From contig CAVRCI010000004.1 in NCBI GenBank assembly GCA_963719495.1, positions 192,001 to 256,000 on the forward strand: a DNA stretch of 64,000 bases, given 5' to 3'. Below the pieces are notes generated by a model. That model saw nothing but the letters and a program-made list of their open reading frames with translations. It searched no databases and was not told the origin of the DNA. Each line of letters starts with the position of its first letter. The first letter of the stretch is position 1. Source of the DNA: an uncultured Verrucomicrobiae bacterium (GTDB taxonomy: Bacteria > Verrucomicrobiota > Verrucomicrobiia > Chthoniobacterales > JAATET01). The position numbers and the translations under genes were made by a program. Shown piece after piece: positions 2,308 to 38,948 of the stretch.

Positions 2308-4821
2308 TTGAATCCGGAGGTCGAGCGGGTTTTCCGGGGGACGCTGGCTCGGTGGCGTTGGCTTTTGTTTGTCCGGTGGATTGGGTGGACGGTTTTGGGG
2401 GCTTGCTTGGGGGTGGTTGGGTTGGGGGCGATGGCGCTTCTCGGGGGGGTAACGGACGTCGGGGTGGCGGCTCTGGGGGTGGCGGCGGTGGTGCTTTTTG
2501 TGGGGATTGCTCTGGTGATCGGGGGGATTCGGGCGGCTTCGGCGGCTCGGGAGGAGGCTTGGCTGGCGGAGAGGATCGAGGGGGCGGCTCCGGCGCTGCT
2601 GGATCGATTGAACACGCTGGCGGATCTGGAGCGCCGGGGGTCGGGGCGGGAGTGGGTGCCGGCGATCGGGGAGCAGGCGGCGGGGGAACTCGCGCGGGCC
2701 GGCCGCATCCGGGCGGTGTCGGCGGAGCCGACGTGGATGGTGGTGGTGGCGGCTTCGATCGCACTGGCGGGAACCGTTTTTTTTCTGACGGAGACGCGGC
2801 CTTGGGACGAGCTCGGTCGGGAATCGGTGGCGGTGGTCGGGGCGGCGGAGGATGCGTTCGAGCTGGACCTGCCGGACGATACTTCCTCGCAAATGCGGGC
2901 GGCGTGGGGGGAGGTGCGGATCACCGAGCCGGGTGGGGATCTCAAACTGACGAAGGTCGACGTGCTGCCGATCACGGTCGAGGCGGCTTCGAACGAGGCT
3001 TTGCGGCGGGCTTCCTGGACGACGGCGGTGAATGGAGGGGCGGCGCGGGACCGGGTGCTGCCGGAGCCGCGGGAGCCGAATTACGCGGTTTACGAGCCGT
3101 TGCTGTATCTGGATGAGTTGGCGGTGGATGATTGGGACGTGGTGAGCTACTCGGCGTCGGCGCTGGCGGGGGAGGCGACGCGGTATTCGTCGGAGATTTT
3201 CTTCGTGGAAATCCGCCCGTTTCGCGAGGAGCTCATCAAGCTCGAGGGTGGCGGCGGTGGCGGCGCGGCGATGGCTTGTTTGAAGAAATTGAGCCGGTTG
3301 ATCGAGAAGCAGACCGACATCCTGCGCGGGACTCACCGGCAGGAGGGGCGTCCGGCGGAGACGTCGGAAGAGCGGGAGCAGGATCAGGCCAAATTGGTCG
3401 GGGCGCAGGGCGAGACGCGCGACGCGACGGCGCATCTCTACGGCGAGGTGGCGGAGATCGAGCACGAGGACATCGCGACGGTGTTGGATCAGTTGGCGCA
3501 AGCGAGGGACACGATGGATGGGGCGGTGGGGGCGCTGGAGACGTCGGACAACGGGTCGGCTTTGGCCGCGGAGCAACTGGCTTTGCAACAGCTCGTCGAG
3601 TCGCGGAAGGATTATTTGAAGGCGCTCGCGAATGGGGCTGGGGGAGGGAGTGGCGGGGCCGAGGAGTCGCAGCCGGTGGCGGGGATGGATCTGGACGGGA
3701 GGATTGCGGACATGGCGGAATTCCGCGACGCGCGGGCGGCGGCGATGACGGCGGTGCGGGAGGCGCGCGAGGCGCAGGAAGCGCTGGCGGAGGAGGCTGC
3801 CGCCACGGACAAGGCGGATCTGCCGGGGCTGGAATTGGAACAGAAGCGGATCGCGGCGACGCTCGAGGCGATGCGCGAGCGGGCGCCGGAGCCGTTCCAG
3901 GCGGCGGAGGCCGCGGCGGGGCAGGCGACGTCGGCGATGGGCGTGGCGGCCGATTCGCTGGCGGGCGGCGACCGGCAGGCCGCGGGGGACGCACGGGCGG
4001 CGGCGGAGAAATTGGCCGAGCTCGAAGCGGCCCTGGCGAGGCAGGACGCGCTGGAGGCGATGGCGGACGTCTACCGAATGAAGGCCGTGCTGGACGCGCA
4101 GGCGGAGCGCTTGGCGGAGTCGGGCGGGGATGCGACCGAGGCGGAGCGGAACGAGGAATTGGCGCAAGCGGGCGACCGGATCGAGCGGGCGAAGGCGGTG
4201 ATGGAGGAGACGCTCGAAGACACGGGCGCGGGGGAATTGTTCGGGCCGGGGCTGGGGAGATCGCTCGCCGGTGAGCCGGGCGAGCGATTGGACGCGGCGG
4301 CGAAAAAATTACAGGAAGGCGGCGGCGAGGGCGCGACCGAGGCGATGGCGGCTTTGGAGGAGATCGCGACGTCGTTCGAGGCGAGTCAGCCGGGATCGTT
4401 GCGCGGGGCGGGGGCGGACCGGCTGGCCGGACCGGGTGAAGTGAGCGACGCGGCGAGGATCCTGGGCGCACTGGCGAAGCGAATGGCGGAGCGGCGCGAG
4501 TTGAGCGACGAGGATCTGCGGCGGCAATTGGAGGAGGCTAGGCTGGCGCTCGTGGACGCGAGGGAGACGGCGGCGGTGCCGAAATTGGCGGCGCTCGCGG
4601 CGGATCTCGAAGCGATGTCGGGCGACGTGGACCTGGAGATCGACGAGGTGGCGCTGCGCAAGTTGGTGGACCGTCTGGAGTCGTATCGGCTGGAGATGGC
4701 GGACCTCGAACGGGAGATGCCGGTGGACCCGGCGTTGTTGAAATTCGACCCGGCGGAGGCTCCCGAGGAGTTTCGCGACCGGGTGCGGCGGTATTTCGAG
4801 AAATTGTCGGAGGGGGCGTGA
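2308..4821 (+). CDS. Large membrane-anchored coiled-coil protein (DUF4175-like)
   Basis: Three N-terminal TM helices, an Ig-like segment, a long Ala/Glu/Gln helical region and the C-terminal PEEFRDRVRRYFEKL motif. Start uncertain (TTG 2308 vs ATG 2230). Confidence 0.7.
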   Translation: MNPEVERVFRGTLARWRWLLFVRWIGWTVLGACLGVVGLGAMALLGGVTDVGVAALGVAAVVLFVGIALVIGGIRAASAAREEAWLAERIEGAAPALLDRLNTLADLERRGSGREWVPAIGEQAAGELARAGRIRAVSAEPTWMVVVAASIALAGTVFFLTETRPWDELGRESVAVVGAAEDAFELDLPDDTSSQMRAAWGEVRITEPGGDLKLTKVDVLPITVEAASNEALRRASWTTAVNGGAARDRVLPEPREPNYAVYEPLLYLDELAVDDWDVVSYSASALAGEATRYSSEIFFVEIRPFREELIKLEGGGGGGAAMACLKKLSRLIEKQTDILRGTHRQEGRPAETSEEREQDQAKLVGAQGETRDATAHLYGEVAEIEHEDIATVLDQLAQARDTMDGAVGALETSDNGSALAAEQLALQQLVESRKDYLKALANGAGGGSGGAEESQPVAGMDLDGRIADMAEFRDARAAAMTAVREAREAQEALAEEAAATDKADLPGLELEQKRIAATLEAMRERAPEPFQAAEAAAGQATSAMGVAADSLAGGDRQAAGDARAAAEKLAELEAALARQDALEAMADVYRMKAVLDAQAERLAESGGDATEAERNEELAQAGDRIERAKAVMEETLEDTGAGELFGPGLGRSLAGEPGERLDAAAKKLQEGGGEGATEAMAALEEIATSFEASQPGSLRGAGADRLAGPGEVSDAARILGALAKRMAERRELSDEDLRRQLEEARLALVDARETAAVPKLAALAADLEAMSGDVDLEIDEVALRKLVDRLESYRLEMADLEREMPVDPALLKFDPAEAPEEFRDRVRRYFEKLSEGA

Positions 4822-4855
4822 GGCTGGTCTTGGTTGGGTGGGTGGTGATTGGCGG

Positions 4856-7132
4856 ATGATGGGGGGGCGGGTGATTTTCGAGACTCCGTGGGTTGGGTTG
4901 GCGGTCGGCTTGATTGGGCTGGGGCTCGTTGTCTGGGGGTCGGCTGGATTGGCGCGGCGGGGGTTGCGGCGTGGGCGCGTGGGCGTGTTGGCTGGATTGC
5001 GGGCGGTGGCGGTGCTGGTGATCGCGGGGTTGCTGGCGCGCCCGGTGATCGTGGTGCCGCGGCCGGACGAAGCCGCGCGGCGGGACGTCGTGTTGCTCGT
5101 GGACCGGAGCGCGAGTATGGCGCTGGCGGACACCGAGTCGGGCGCGCGGCTGGCGGACGCGCTCGTGTTTGCGCGGGACGTGGTGGGGCCGGCGGTGCAG
5201 CGGGCGGGCTTCCGGGTGCGGCCGATGGTCTTCGACTCGACGGCGGAAGGGGTGGACGCGGCGGAGTTGGCGGTTGCCAAAGCGGAGGGGGTTGGCACGG
5301 ATCTGGGGGTCGCTTTTTCCGCGGCCTTGGCGGCGACGGCCCGGGAGCCGGCGGCGATCGTGGTGCTGACCGATGGCGCGGCGAACGAGATCGAGTCGAA
5401 TGGAGCGGCGGTCGCGGCGTTGCTGGCGACGCGCACGCCCGTGATCGCCGTGGGCGTGGGGTCGGACCGGGGCGTCGAGACCCTGGATCTCGCGGGCTTG
5501 GACGCGCCGGAGGCCGTGCCGCCGAACGCGACCTTCCGGATCGGCGCGAGGTTGGAGGCGAATCTCGCCGGGCCGCTGGGCGCGTTTGATTTGATCCTGC
5601 TGCGGGATGGGAAATTTCACGATCGCCGCAGGGTCGGTGGGGTGACGGGATCGCGGTATTGGTCGGAGAGTTTCGAACTGAGCGAGGCGGAGGAAGGTCG
5701 GCACGAGTATCGGGTGCGGATCGAGACGCCGGCGGCGGAGCGGGGGATCGTGCTGATCGAGAGCGAGGCCAAGGTCGCGGTGCGCGTGAGCCGCGAACGC
5801 GAATTGCGGGTGCTCTACATGCAGGGGGCGCTGACTTGGGATTTCAAATTCATCGGACTCGCGCTGCGGGGCGATCCGACGGTGCGGGTGACGGGCTTGA
5901 GCCGGACGAGCGAGCGGTCGGTCTTCCGACAAAACCTCGAGGAGCCGGGCGAGTTGCTGGACGGATTTCCCGACGACGTTGCGGACTTGGCGGCGTTTTC
6001 GGTCGTCGTGCTGTCGAGCTTGAGACCGTCGGAGCTGACGCCCGCGCAGCAGGAGGCGATCGCGTCGTTCTGCGCCGATTACGGCGGTGGAGTCTTGCTG
6101 ATCGGTGGACGGAATACTTTCGACGCGTCGTGGCGTGGGAGCCGTTTGGAACAAATGCTGCCCGTGCGTTTCGAGGACGACCGGGGGGTGCGCGGACTGG
6201 ATCCACCTTTTCAAATGCGGCTCACGGCGGAGGCGTTGGCGGACCCGGTTTTCGAGATCGGCGAGGCCGGGGAGACGGCGGACGCGTGGCGGAAGTTGCC
6301 GCCGTTCGACGATTACGGGCGGGTGGTCGAGGCGAAGGCCGGAGCGACCGTGTGGGCGGTGCATTCCGAAGACGTGGGGCCGGATGGCCAACCGCGCGTG
6401 CTGATGGCCGAGCAGCCCTACGGGTCGGGCACGGCGGTGGTGATCGCGCTTCAGAATCTCTGGAAATGGCGGCTGGCGAAGGATGCGGATCAGGGTCATT
6501 TCGATCGATTCTGGCAGCAACTCGTCCGGCGGCTGGCGGAGGCGGGACGGCAGGCGGTGCGGATCGAAGTGGCGGACCAGGAGCTGGGTCCGGGGCGGGA
6601 AATTCGATTGATTCTCAACCGTCGGGAGGCGGCCGACGACGCGGTGGCGGAGACGGAAACGGATGAGCAAGGGCCCCGGGCGGCGGAGGTCCTGCGCTTT
6701 CGGGTCACCACGGACCTTGGCGACACGGTCGCAAGCGAAAACATCGAGTTGGGGGGCGGGCAGCGGGCGGAGGTCGGGTTCACGCCGGATAAGGCGGGGA
6801 TTTACACCATCGACGTGATCGGTGAAGGCGACGTGGCGCTTGCAACGAGGACGCTGGAGATTCGCGAGCCGAACGTCGAAATGGCTCGCCCGGGGCGGGA
6901 CATGGAGACGCTGCGGCAGTGGTCGGCGATGAGCGCGGGGACGGCGTGGACGGTGGAGGAAGCGCGGGGACAAGTGGATGAGTTCGCGGCGGGCTTGAAG
7001 GAGCGGATCGAGGAGGCGAGTCGCACGCGGCTTCAACGCGAGCCCCTGGGGCCGGGTTTGTGGGCGATGGCGCTGGTGGTGCTGCCGCTGGGGGCGGGGT
7101 GGGTGCTGAGAAAGCGCTGGATGTTGCGGTGA
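4856..7132 (+). CDS. VWA plus glutamine-amidotransferase-like domain membrane protein
   Basis: Intact MIDAS (VDRSASM...TDLG...LTDG), GGGVLLIGG..F GATase-like motif, YGSG..V..W.WR motif, N- and C-terminal TMs. Confidence 0.8.
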   Translation: MMGGRVIFETPWVGLAVGLIGLGLVVWGSAGLARRGLRRGRVGVLAGLRAVAVLVIAGLLARPVIVVPRPDEAARRDVVLLVDRSASMALADTESGARLADALVFARDVVGPAVQRAGFRVRPMVFDSTAEGVDAAELAVAKAEGVGTDLGVAFSAALAATAREPAAIVVLTDGAANEIESNGAAVAALLATRTPVIAVGVGSDRGVETLDLAGLDAPEAVPPNATFRIGARLEANLAGPLGAFDLILLRDGKFHDRRRVGGVTGSRYWSESFELSEAEEGRHEYRVRIETPAAERGIVLIESEAKVAVRVSRERELRVLYMQGALTWDFKFIGLALRGDPTVRVTGLSRTSERSVFRQNLEEPGELLDGFPDDVADLAAFSVVVLSSLRPSELTPAQQEAIASFCADYGGGVLLIGGRNTFDASWRGSRLEQMLPVRFEDDRGVRGLDPPFQMRLTAEALADPVFEIGEAGETADAWRKLPPFDDYGRVVEAKAGATVWAVHSEDVGPDGQPRVLMAEQPYGSGTAVVIALQNLWKWRLAKDADQGHFDRFWQQLVRRLAEAGRQAVRIEVADQELGPGREIRLILNRREAADDAVAETETDEQGPRAAEVLRFRVTTDLGDTVASENIELGGGQRAEVGFTPDKAGIYTIDVIGEGDVALATRTLEIREPNVEMARPGRDMETLRQWSAMSAGTAWTVEEARGQVDEFAAGLKERIEEASRTRLQREPLGPGLWAMALVVLPLGAGWVLRKRWMLR

Positions 7133-35998: not shown

Positions 35999-36405
35999 CG
36001 GCGGAAACCCGGTCAGGCCTGGAGCACCCCGGGGTGCTCGACGCTTGCGCGTTCGACGAGCGGAGTGGTCGAGCGGTCCTCGCGATGTTCGCGACGGAGC
36101 CTTGGGGGAATCAGCGAATGGCGTTGCTCGTGCAGGAGAAGCTGAACGCCTACGCGTCGTTCGTGCTCGATGGGGAGATGGCCGAGCAGATGCCGGAATT
36201 GGTGAGGAAACCCATGTGCATCCAGTTGCGGACGGTGCACGAGCCAGACGAGCGGGTGCTGGGATTCCTGCAGATGGTGCGGGAGCAGCTGGCCTTTCAG
36301 GACATCGAGTTCGAGACGGTTCTCATCGGCGAGGGCGAAGCTCCGGCGGAGGGAGTCTGTGGTTGCGGCACCGGGGGTGGTTGCTGCGGTGGTGGTGGTG
36401 GCTGA
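35995..36405 (+). CDS. Hypothetical protein (DUF6572-like) with Cys/Gly-rich tail
   Basis: VLD...L...W....LVQEKLNAY.SF.LDGEM pattern; tail VCGCGTGGGCC. Confidence 0.7.
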   Translation: MTAETRSGLEHPGVLDACAFDERSGRAVLAMFATEPWGNQRMALLVQEKLNAYASFVLDGEMAEQMPELVRKPMCIQLRTVHEPDERVLGFLQMVREQLAFQDIEFETVLIGEGEAPAEGVCGCGTGGGCCGGGGG

Positions 36406-36811
36406 TCGGTCGCCGAGCTGCCATTTCCTGCCGGCGGGGCAGATCGTCGCGAGCGAGCGATCGCGGGGAGGGTCGGATGATCGGAAGTCCTGGTTCGGAC
36501 GCGCTTCCGATCATCGCTCGAGACCGGCTTGCGTGGCAGTTGGCAGGCGTTTCCAAGACGCTGTAAATAAATCCAAGTGGGGTGGTAGCGTGCGTTCTCC
36601 GCACTGCTCGTCGGGCGGAAGTGCCGGTTTTCTATCAGTTCGCAGATGCCTCCCCGAAGGTAGGATTTGCAGTAATTGGTCGCCGGGTCGGCAGCATTGA
36701 GTTCGAGTCGTATCGTAGCCTCTGAAATTCAGCATGAAAGATGCGAAAATTCCCAATTCATAACAACTTATGCGTCAACTTTGTTTTCCGAAATATTGAC
36801 GGCGCGCAGTA

Positions 36812-36875
36812 TAACGGGACCGAGTAACCCCAGCCAGCGAAGCGGCTAAGGGTTGGCTGCAGCGCCTTGTTGGGC
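36812..36875 (-). other. attC site, 5' part (R'' GCCCAAC, L'' GCTGCAGC)
   Basis: Minus strand right after the toxin stop: GCCCAAC-AAGGC-GCTGCAGC-CAACCCTTAGCCG...; truncated at CCCGTTA. Confidence 0.8.
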
Positions 36876-36876
36876 C

Positions 36877-37140
36877 TCATTTGTAGTGCGTCCACATGCG
36901 TAGAACTTTCACAATCTTCTGTTCGCCGATCACTTGGTAAACCAGTCGATGTTGAATGTTGATACGTCTGGAATATGCTCCTGCGAGATCACCAACAAGT
37001 AGTTCAAACGGGGGCGGGGATCTGAATGGATCTTCCGAAAGAATCTCTATTAGATCTTCCGCCTTTGAGCGATGTTGGGATCGGCTGAGTTTCTTGGCAT
37101 CCTTCTGAGCTTGTTTCGTGTAAACGAGGGTAAAGGTCAC
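36877..37140 (-). CDS. yoeB: Txe/YoeB family toxin
   Basis: YTKQAQKDAKKL, L.GDLAGAYSRRINIQHRLVYQV, RMWTHY; GTGA overlap with the antitoxin. Confidence 0.93.
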   Translation of the reverse strand: MTFTLVYTKQAQKDAKKLSRSQHRSKAEDLIEILSEDPFRSPPPFELLVGDLAGAYSRRINIQHRLVYQVIGEQKIVKVLRMWTHYK

Positions 37141-37379
37141 CACGAGAGAGCTGTGCTGCACTCTTCAATGGGGGTCGCGAGACCTTCGATAATGGAGTCC
37201 CGCATTCCCTTCATTGAGGTAAGATAAAAGGTTTCTTCAATTGCGCGCCAGTCGACTTCCGAAATGAGAACCGCGTTACCGCGCTTCCCCGTGATCTGGA
37301 TCGGTTCGTGGGACGATGCGACGTCATCCAATAATTGGTAGATTTTCGTGCGCGCTTCCGTGGCTGTTATCGTCTGCAT
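37137..37379 (-). CDS. yefM: Phd/YefM family antitoxin
   Basis: ITATEAR.KIYQLLDDV..SHEPIQITGKRGNAVLISE.DWRAIEET. Confidence 0.93.
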   Translation of the reverse strand: MQTITATEARTKIYQLLDDVASSHEPIQITGKRGNAVLISEVDWRAIEETFYLTSMKGMRDSIIEGLATPIEECSTALSW

Positions 37380-37425
37380 GCCGAAACGTGCGCTAAAGCG
37401 TGCGGTGATGGCAACTTCGTAGTGG

Positions 37426-37516
37426 GCTCAACGTCAAGCTCAGCCACCCTGAGCGGACGACCGAGCCAACCCCTAGGTGAGCTGCAAGTAACGGGACCGA
37501 GCAACCCCAGCCAGCG
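37426..37516 (-). other. attC site, 3' part (L' GCTGAGC, R' GTTGAGC)
   Basis: Minus strand ...CCGCTCAGGGTG-GCTGAGC-TTGAC-GTTGAGC upstream of yefM; complementary to the 5' part at 36812-36875. Confidence 0.8.
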
Positions 37517-38355
37517 CAAGAATTTGACGGTGAATTGGGAGAGGTTCAGGGCGGCAGCGCGCAGGGAGGGAAAAGCGCGACCGGCGGCGGCGGCAAGGGC
37601 GATTCGGGAGTCGATGCGCTGGTGGCGGCGTTGCGGTTCGGCGATGAGACCGGAAGGGAGGGTCGTTTGGTTGGTTTGAAGGAACTTTGGTGACCGCGGT
37701 CGGGTTTGGCGTTGCCGCTGATCGAGGTGCACGGGTTGCACTTGCCGAAAGTTGCCGGGTGGGATATCCAGTTGCCTGTGAGGAATCGATCGATGGCCGC
37801 AGTCTTGGTCTCGTTTGCGCTGGCGGGCGCGGCGGGTGCGTTCGGTCAGGTCGAATCGATCGTGGCTGGTAAGGAGCGCGGCGAGCGGGGTCTTCCCGCT
37901 TCGGCGGCGGGGCAATTCATTGATTCAGCTGAGGTGCGGGTCGCTGGGCATCGGGATCGGGGGGGCTCCGAGTGTCGTGGCGCTGTTTTTGGTGACCGCG
38001 GGAGGACTGTTGTTTCGATTTGGCGACCGTCTCGCGGAAGGGTTGAGCGGGTTGGTTGGGGGACCGAATTTCGATCAAGTCGGACGAAGGTGGAGTCGGC
38101 GGAGCGGGAGGAGAACCGGAGGTCGCCCGGCCAATCGGCGCTTCGACCGGGATCCGAAGTCTCCGTCGATGATGAGATCCCGTGCGATCATGACCGGTCC
38201 CCGCGCGGCGGGAGACGGGCCGCGAAGCGGTCGCGTCCGAGGTCCCGACCGACTCGGTGCGGCTGGTCCGGGCCGCGTCGGCCGTGGGGGTGCGACCCGG
38301 CTGCGGGGTCGCTCCGGGAGCTCCTCGCGGAAGCGCGGACCCGCATGGTAGGTGC

Positions 38356-38948
38356 GGGTGTGATCGAAAGCGCGTCCTGATCGGAAGAAGAATCTCGTGA
38401 ACGCCAACAACGTCTGACCGAGGGGACGGCAGGAGGCTGGTGACGAGTCCGTGGGAGATCGCCACGGTCCAAGGCCTCGCAGCATCGGGTCTCCCGCCTC
38501 ATCCAGACGCCCCCCCCCAATTCCCGCGGAGTCTACCGATAGAACGTAACGGCCGTTACGTTTTATCGGGAGCAGATTCAATCGTTCGTTCGTTCGTTCG
38601 TTCGTTCGTTCATTCGTTCGCTTGCCACTCCCCGTCCGGGGACCCCCGGATCCGCGGCGTTCCGACGGGCAAGCTCCGGCTCGCCAGCAGTAAGGCACGG
38701 GCTCTTCCGAGGACCTCGCCACCAAGCCATTACCTGTAAAATGTAACGGTCGTCAGATTTTACAGGTAATGGATTGGTGGGGCGCTCTGCCGCCAACTCC
38801 GAGGGTGCCCGGAGATTTGCTTCTCCGCGCGGGTGGTATCATGGCCACCCGAGGTGGCTTTACCCGCGGCTCGACGCGGGCTGGCTCGTTGATCCCAATC
38901 TCACTCGCACCTTTGGGCTCAGCCTTGGACGCACTTTTAATCACACCC
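38356..38948 (-). mobile_element. Non-autonomous transposable element (MITE), copy 2, 593 bp
   Basis: TIRs GGGTGTGATCGAAAGCGCGTCC / GGACGCACTTTTAATCACACCC; exact 9-bp TSD GGTAGGTGC (38347-38355, 38949-38957); colinear with 14855-15316 plus a 142-bp extra segment. Confidence 0.9.

Follow-up and report, generated by a model that had tools for sequence, protein, structure and literature searches.

The locus lies in a window of 64,000 nucleotides, the whole stretch of DNA that was analysed, from the genome of an uncultured Verrucomicrobiae bacterium (G000). It consists of a toxin-antitoxin (TA) gene pair, yefM-yoeB, enclosed by two incomplete copies of an integron attC site. Columns 1-64 of the site stand downstream of the genes and columns 37-127 upstream, with an overlap of 28 bp, and the outer ends of both parts abut remnants of insertion sequences (IS). 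The features are listed below by their positions in the window.

36598..36811, minus strand: remnant of an IS630 left end, comprising the terminal repeat and the beginning of the transposase gene; four intact copies in a related genome (G005) are 80-85% identical to it
36812..36813, minus strand: left end of the 28-bp repeat, formed by the TA target dinucleotide of IS630 (attC columns 63-64)
36812..36839, plus strand: copy 1 of the 28-bp repeat, attC columns 37-64, with the private base common to both copies at 36814
36812..36875, minus strand: attC columns 1-64, the 5' part of the site with R'', L'' and some of the variable loop; rare bases at columns 27, 51 and 62
36877..37140, minus strand: yoeB (Txe/YoeB toxin), 87 aa from a GTG that overlaps the yefM stop
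37137..37379, minus strand: yefM (Phd/YefM antitoxin), 80 aa, PF02604
37380..37425, minus strand: cassette leader, likely with its own promoter
37426..37516, minus strand: 3' part of attC, columns 37-127 (loop, L' and R'), with the IntI crossover point between 37432 and 37431
37489..37516, plus strand: copy 2 of the 28-bp repeat, with the private base common to both copies at 37491
37509..37516, minus strand: right end of the repeat, an 8-bp microhomology of the IS4-like transposase gene with attC columns 37-44
37509..37675, minus strand: 3' part of the gene for an IS4-like transposase (RNase H-fold DDE), a remnant that matches a 479-aa ORF on contig C13 of G000 in two stretches, at 87% and 78% identity

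An earlier note on this DNA had reported a 28-bp direct repeat with one mismatch, a 5' attC part downstream of the toxin with a 3' part upstream of the antitoxin, and a segment equal to one 677-bp unit plus 28 bp of redundancy; all of this was recovered. The repeats at 36812-36839 and 37489-37516 are spaced by 677 bp, which is also the unit length, and they differ at attC column 51. Their overlap falls in the variable terminal loop of the site, outside the L boxes (columns 13-21 and 108-115) and the stem bound by IntI. Short-read contigs of run X1, possibly the source sample, were identical to the assembly over 36233-36570, 37093-37326 and 37416-37635, including the private base, and the last of these bridges the right junction. 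No piece bridging the left junction was present among the short-read contigs listed, and runs X2 (small share) and X3 gave no support for the locus itself. An Rfam search of the window returned a single tRNA and nothing else.

The interval from the DUF6572 gene to the next gene measures 2.6 kb here. It is short (about 370 bp and 330 bp) and free of cassette and IS parts in the related genomes G001 and G004, and it holds 2.5 kb of unrelated DNA in G003; G002 is not syntenic at this interval within the 8 kb fetched. No attC sequence was found in the orthologous intervals of G001, G003 and G004. No empty site was found among them either, a result that is not decisive because these intervals have no base-level alignment to the one studied here. 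Several further features surround the segment. After the DUF6572 gene, 36476-36515 contains a 12-bp perfect inverted repeat with a 16-nt loop, and includes 17 bp resembling the end of a 594-bp dispersed element at 38355-38948. This element is MITE-like, bounded by terminal inverted repeats of 23 bp, with two hairpins in its interior and a TTCG microsatellite; G000 has 13 copies of at least 500 bp at 67-100% identity, with no clear ORF or target duplication. As a carrier bracketing the segment this repeat (taken as 595 bp) was rejected, its end motif not being at 36497 among matches with at most three mismatches. The 680 bp at 37676-38354 have no relative in the genome or among 17 genomes of the family, and the ORF at 37706-38380 has no Pfam match.

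Both reading frames of the gene pair are open. YoeB matches PF06769 and scored 90.7 bits on TIGR02116 (cut-off 51.8), and YefM scored 62.1 bits on PF02604 (cut-off 29.8) and below the cut-off of the narrower YefM model NF008499. With an antitoxin gene overlapping the downstream toxin gene and both products above family cut-offs, the pair has the organization of a type II YefM-YoeB system. In an alignment, residues corresponding to the catalytic Glu, Arg, His and Tyr of E. coli YoeB are present. No other YoeB gene occurs in G000, and the TA pair is absent from its array. Related TA cassettes with about 70% DNA identity, flanked by full attC on both sides, reside in the arrays of G003 and G004; these were the best matches among 30 related genomes, where no donor cassette or closer relative was found. 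When metagenomes were scanned with the toxin, the best 80 of 572 stretches were 61-73% identical at the protein level. Values of pN were 0.16-0.18 against a saturated pS of 0.74-0.85, a contrast that spans deep divergence and is silent on recent selection; it is consistent with retention by addiction and is no proof of current function. The leader contains a -35-like hexamer at 37414-37409 that reads TTGCCA, and in the alignment four related cassettes have TTGACA or TTGACT. A consensus scan for promoters and terminators returned no site. There is no ribosome-binding site ahead of yefM, which suggests a leaderless message.

The attC parts belong to the family of the sedentary integron of the genus. 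The earlier note had found no intI, which is true of the window and not of the genome: the integron integrase gene, above the TIGR02249 cut-off, is on another contig (C2:176417). The genome search for intI and related attC that it had proposed yielded, with anchor searches, 212 full attC of the 127-bp family, 207 on C2 together with intI and 5 on contig C7; 120 of the 212 fall in the subfamily of the window's halves. Partly fetched arrays of the relatives contained 133 (G001), 102 (G002), 61 (G003), 321 (G004) and 135 (G005) full attC, and anchor counts for whole genomes were 148 (G001), 190 (G002), 64 (G003) and 157 (G005). IS elements interrupt array attC in G000, G001, G004 and G005. A second IntI-like gene of G000 (C1:371896-372837, L002; 248.7 bits, under the cut-off of 265) may represent an In0; no attC of the family is on contig C1.

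By origin the unit is an integron cassette, its ORFs lying between an R' core (TTRRRY-like) and a complementary R'' within attC sequence of the family. R'' and R' are complementary with one mismatch, as in 107/925 array cassettes; 798/925 have none. We built an attC profile from the 120 array sites, on which members of the family scored 107.7-143.1 bits. When the two halves were joined in silico, the product scored 126-128 bits and formed 11/11 canonical R/L-box pairs. The well-paired 127-bp site described by the earlier note is thus borne out in score and box pairing, and "well paired" holds only in relative terms: the lowest-energy fold was not the recombinogenic hairpin, neither for the join nor for a typical family member. 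The recombinogenic hairpin of the join lay 5.0-7.3 kcal/mol above the lowest-energy fold (family median 3.1), and its fold probability was 6e-4 or 3e-5 (family median 3e-3). In their native context the halves form 3/11 pairs each, where a functional cassette has a complete attC forming R and L boxes. In silico neither half forms the IntI hairpin, and the cassette is on this prediction now immobile for IntI, as had been proposed.

The left end of the repeat coincides to the base with an IS630 terminus and its TA target. In G005 the intact copies of this element have a DDE_3 transposase (NF033545, 227.8 bits, cut-off 100) and terminal inverted repeats, TA stands on both sides of 4/4 copies, and their first bases match the sequence adjoining 36812. 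Only the left 215 bp or so are found here, with a 135-bp internal deletion near 36686-36692; the remainder of the element is lost, and a search of G000 yielded no IS630 right end. For the AT-rich left flank, an attI and a second attC were considered and rejected, since it is an IS630 end. Because the repeat ends at an IS630 target, the downstream attC would once have been longer, and 28 is not a mechanistic number. Two IS interruptions of this attC family in G004 are at about the same columns. They are two different IS inside array attC, at approximately columns 62-64 (L066 near 2511 and L068 near 2643); these sites match the IS630 site here, and this TA dinucleotide may be a favoured target. 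IS1111-attC elements target attC specifically (cited in the available part of bioRxiv 10.1101/2025.06.18.660453); unlike these, the IS630 element has no attC targeting, 0/4 of its G005 copies being in attC.

The right junction falls inside the ORF of a transposase gene, at the 8-bp word common to that gene and attC. Within the gene remnant, 192 bp are deleted where a 7-bp microhomology lies, near 37636-37642. We call it IS4-like because the best family of the C13 transposase (NF033592 IS4, 57.6 bits) is below its cut-off of 115. Since both IS remnants carry further internal deletions, the locus is undergoing decay by deletion. Most likely the two trimming events were independent and IS-related. 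The earlier note had read the ends as a non-canonical exit route from integrons; they are an IS630 TA target and an 8-bp microhomology to an IS4-like gene, and because each end of the repeat has an ordinary cause of its own, the 28 bp would be the leftover of a longer redundancy rather than the signature of such a route.

A near-identical 28-mer is by itself not beyond chance, as 43/212 G000 attC contain it within one mismatch. A single base is more informative. Both halves have T at column 62, which occurs in 2/120 subfamily attC of G000 and in 7/247 pooled over six genomes; C is retained at this position in the 49 array copies whose context is the same. The haplotype of the halves was found in 0/964 full attC, and over 201 whole genomes it occurred only in these two places. 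Metagenome contigs gave 0 matches to the pattern, in a search that may leave out near genomes. A rare base in these columns was common to 23/10002 random pairs from the same genome at a 3% threshold and to 59/10002 at 5%, and to 0/102 adjacent pairs. The likelihood ratio in favour of a common origin is about 70:1, a rough hand estimate that assumes about 3% independent decay per G/C site. The prior for a common origin is low, because exact tandem duplicates numbered 0/889 among adjacent cassette pairs (19 were tandem paralogues, the best scoring 0.91 of length) and neighbouring attC were no more alike than random pairs over 925 cassettes. The same comparison gave no more similar flanking attC around TA or other array cassettes, TA cassettes not being classed separately. 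Taken together, and pooling all routes, both halves probably derive from one attC.

The explanation that we favour, and to which we give about an even chance of being right, is a stranded yefM-yoeB cassette whose flanking attC copies came from one duplicated or homogenised site and were later cut by IS630 and by an IS4-like deletion. The DNA would once have had the order attC-cassette-attC, both flanks being one and the same attC. Such an arrangement could arise through a dimer made by IntI copy-and-paste, or through unequal crossover or conversion between two attC repeats. Judging from PMC13108822 and PMC11023631, recombination between flanking repeats around a non-redundant TA pair would be lethal where it yields the deletion product and tolerated where it yields the duplication product, and because of this we favour a dimer or crossover/conversion over copying of a circle. 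Copy-and-paste has a parallel in duplications linked to IntI, aadB-aadB arrays among them (Souque et al. 2021, PMC8024014); as described in the accessible text of that paper, it likewise leaves a cassette with identical attC sites before and after it. There it was demonstrated for resistance cassettes at attI under selection, whereas here it would be read from one shared base.

In the trimming that would have followed, IS630 joined the downstream attC at the TA in columns 63-64, and its remaining columns were lost together with most of the IS; at the other end, a deletion between two copies of the 8-mer would have brought the IS4-like gene up against column 37 of the upstream attC. Both junctions are present in the sequence, and the two events are what we infer from them. 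IntI would then be unable to excise the cassette, and the genes likely stayed intact through the toxicity of losing the sole yefM-yoeB copy. The changed -35-like hexamer and the deep divergence behind the pN/pS contrast count against this last point of retention. No trace of a first cassette copy survives at the locus. A dimer, crossover/conversion and copying of a circle over more than one turn give the same local sequence and are indistinguishable here.

Plain erosion is a possible but less probable competitor. An array piece with two different attC of the subfamily would have been cut by the same two IS-related events, the shared base having arisen twice or being common in an unsampled donor array. 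Two cuts in flanking attC always leave complementary halves, because an upstream cut keeps the 3' part and a downstream cut the 5' part. When random cuts were placed in real adjacent pairs (both attC of 127 bp), the overlap was at least 20 bp in 35% of trials, and at least 20 bp with at least 96% identity in 7.9% (79 G000 pairs) or 5.7% (181 pairs). Over the columns of the repeat, 28/67 neighbouring pairs of the subfamily show no more than one difference, different adjacent cassettes are the rule (889/889), and the halves bear other private G/C-to-A/T changes (columns 27, 51 and 125). Erosion, which the earlier note had named as its alternative, accounts in this way for both ends and not easily for the shared base: it requires the commonest haplotype (49/212) plus an independent change at the same base, against which the hand estimate given above weighs, and a combination seen nowhere else in the 201 genomes.

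Off-array pieces occur elsewhere in this genome and in congeners. The five-attC cluster on C7 of G000 (L036, about 2560-6470) apparently has a precise chromosomal G/TT site at its start. The first cassette of the cluster shares 99.7% identity with a member of the C2 array, and the last has no attC and abuts an IS. A three-attC fragment in G003 (C1, about 1001500-1004000; L154) has its start in the middle of a cassette, at a point that apparently lies within a chromosomal gene, and its other end about 12 bp into an attC; it is apparently a piece of array moved with ends not made by IntI. In G002 (C4:310788, L155) a lone attC 3' fragment is followed by a cassette-like stretch without an attC of its own. 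Redundancy was absent at these three loci. Off-array sites in G001, G002 and G005 were drawn among the matches listed, and others may exist.

The strongest surviving form of the earlier note's idea is that a cassette circle was copied for more than one turn by template switching or rolling replication and joined to the IS4-like remnant by microhomology, with IS630 trimming the far end. It would account for the private base of both halves and for a junction of circle type with no need for a first copy that was lost, and it suits a locus that is a mosaic of short pieces joined at microhomologies. We nevertheless hold it to be improbable, since it is locally indistinguishable from a trimmed dimer, no report of such a process for integron circles was found in the literature searched, and it is a single case next to three other off-array loci without redundancy. 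If true, it would constitute an integrase-independent route for cassettes out of and back into integrons. Coupled to it is the equally doubtful proposal of a dormant store in the split attC, in which the 28-bp repeats would recombine with each other and set free a circle of 677 bp; the attC of this circle would be complete, and the organism's own IntI could recapture it.

The literal form of that idea, one circle inserted by a single crossover inside the attC (through the 8-bp microhomology, a cryptic G/TT of the loop, or homologous recombination with a resident 28-mer), is very unlikely. The segment does equal one unit plus 28 bp, and the T at column 62 makes a GTT word. Opening a circle once gives no redundancy or a few crossover bases, however, and the overlap is in the loop and not in the attC stem, where the opening had been placed. 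Had the crossover been at the 8-mer, 8 bp would stand duplicated and the remainder of the IS4-like gene would follow downstream, where it is absent. Insertion by IntI at GTT would give R' junctions, which are not those observed, and a resident 28-mer would have to be an attC eroded by the same IS events, still with the rare base twice. The orthologous intervals in the three relatives are also free of attC sequence. A single-circle crossover, whether site-specific or of Campbell type, leaves a continuous target; it is contradicted by flanks that are two unrelated IS remnants. An artefact of assembling a 200-copy attC repeat could be suspected in a metagenome-type assembly with an unbridged left junction, and is hardly credible given the X1 contigs (X1 being perhaps the source sample), which match without difference through the private base and the right junction, and the 49 array copies that keep C.

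The favoured explanation, a duplicated site trimmed by two IS-related events, sets the locus near several known arrangements. SALINs, as defined in the available text of bioRxiv 10.1101/2022.09.11.507474, are isolated cassettes away from intI in an integron-bearing genome, and in this the locus resembles them; the same text expects a later loss of attC, termed "domestication". Downstream of a SALIN cassette stands a single full attC, and upstream a chromosomal G/WT junction, whereas here there is no full attC, the downstream one being cut at column 64, and 91 bp of attC stand upstream (columns 37-121 in place of a G/WT junction). A likeness to CALINs lies in two attC-derived sites without a nearby intI; CALINs comprise at least two attC and no neighbouring intI, and the sections available of Cury et al. 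2016 (PMC4889954) propose rearrangement by IS among their origins. The two partial sites scored 61.9 and 79.9 bits on our profile, and intI is on another contig. Unlike the sites of a CALIN, both are truncated and predicted to be unable to fold, making the locus an eroded remnant that is not mobilisable in trans as it is; measured against the accessible descriptions (PMC4889954; bioRxiv 10.1101/2025.06.18.660453) it is at best an eroded CALIN.

Closest in content are the TA cassettes of the sedentary integron of V. cholerae and their "cassette loss killing" (PMC13108822, PMC11023631). In the parts of these papers available, they are likewise type II TA systems with a leader of their own, bounded by attC and non-redundant, and non-duplicated TA cassettes are not lost. 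The pair described here differs in lying outside the array and in not being excisable by IntI, so that it cannot police excision, and its addiction is putative. No description of overlapping attC halves was found in the mainly open-access literature searched.

If the favoured explanation is correct, the locus would be a tidy example of cassette domestication, in which a TA cassette was frozen outside the integron by IS damage. Its appearance of one circle with terminal redundancy is to be expected from any two cuts in homogeneous attC repeats. The shared private base hints at a local duplication or conversion around a TA cassette, of a kind unseen in the arrays themselves.
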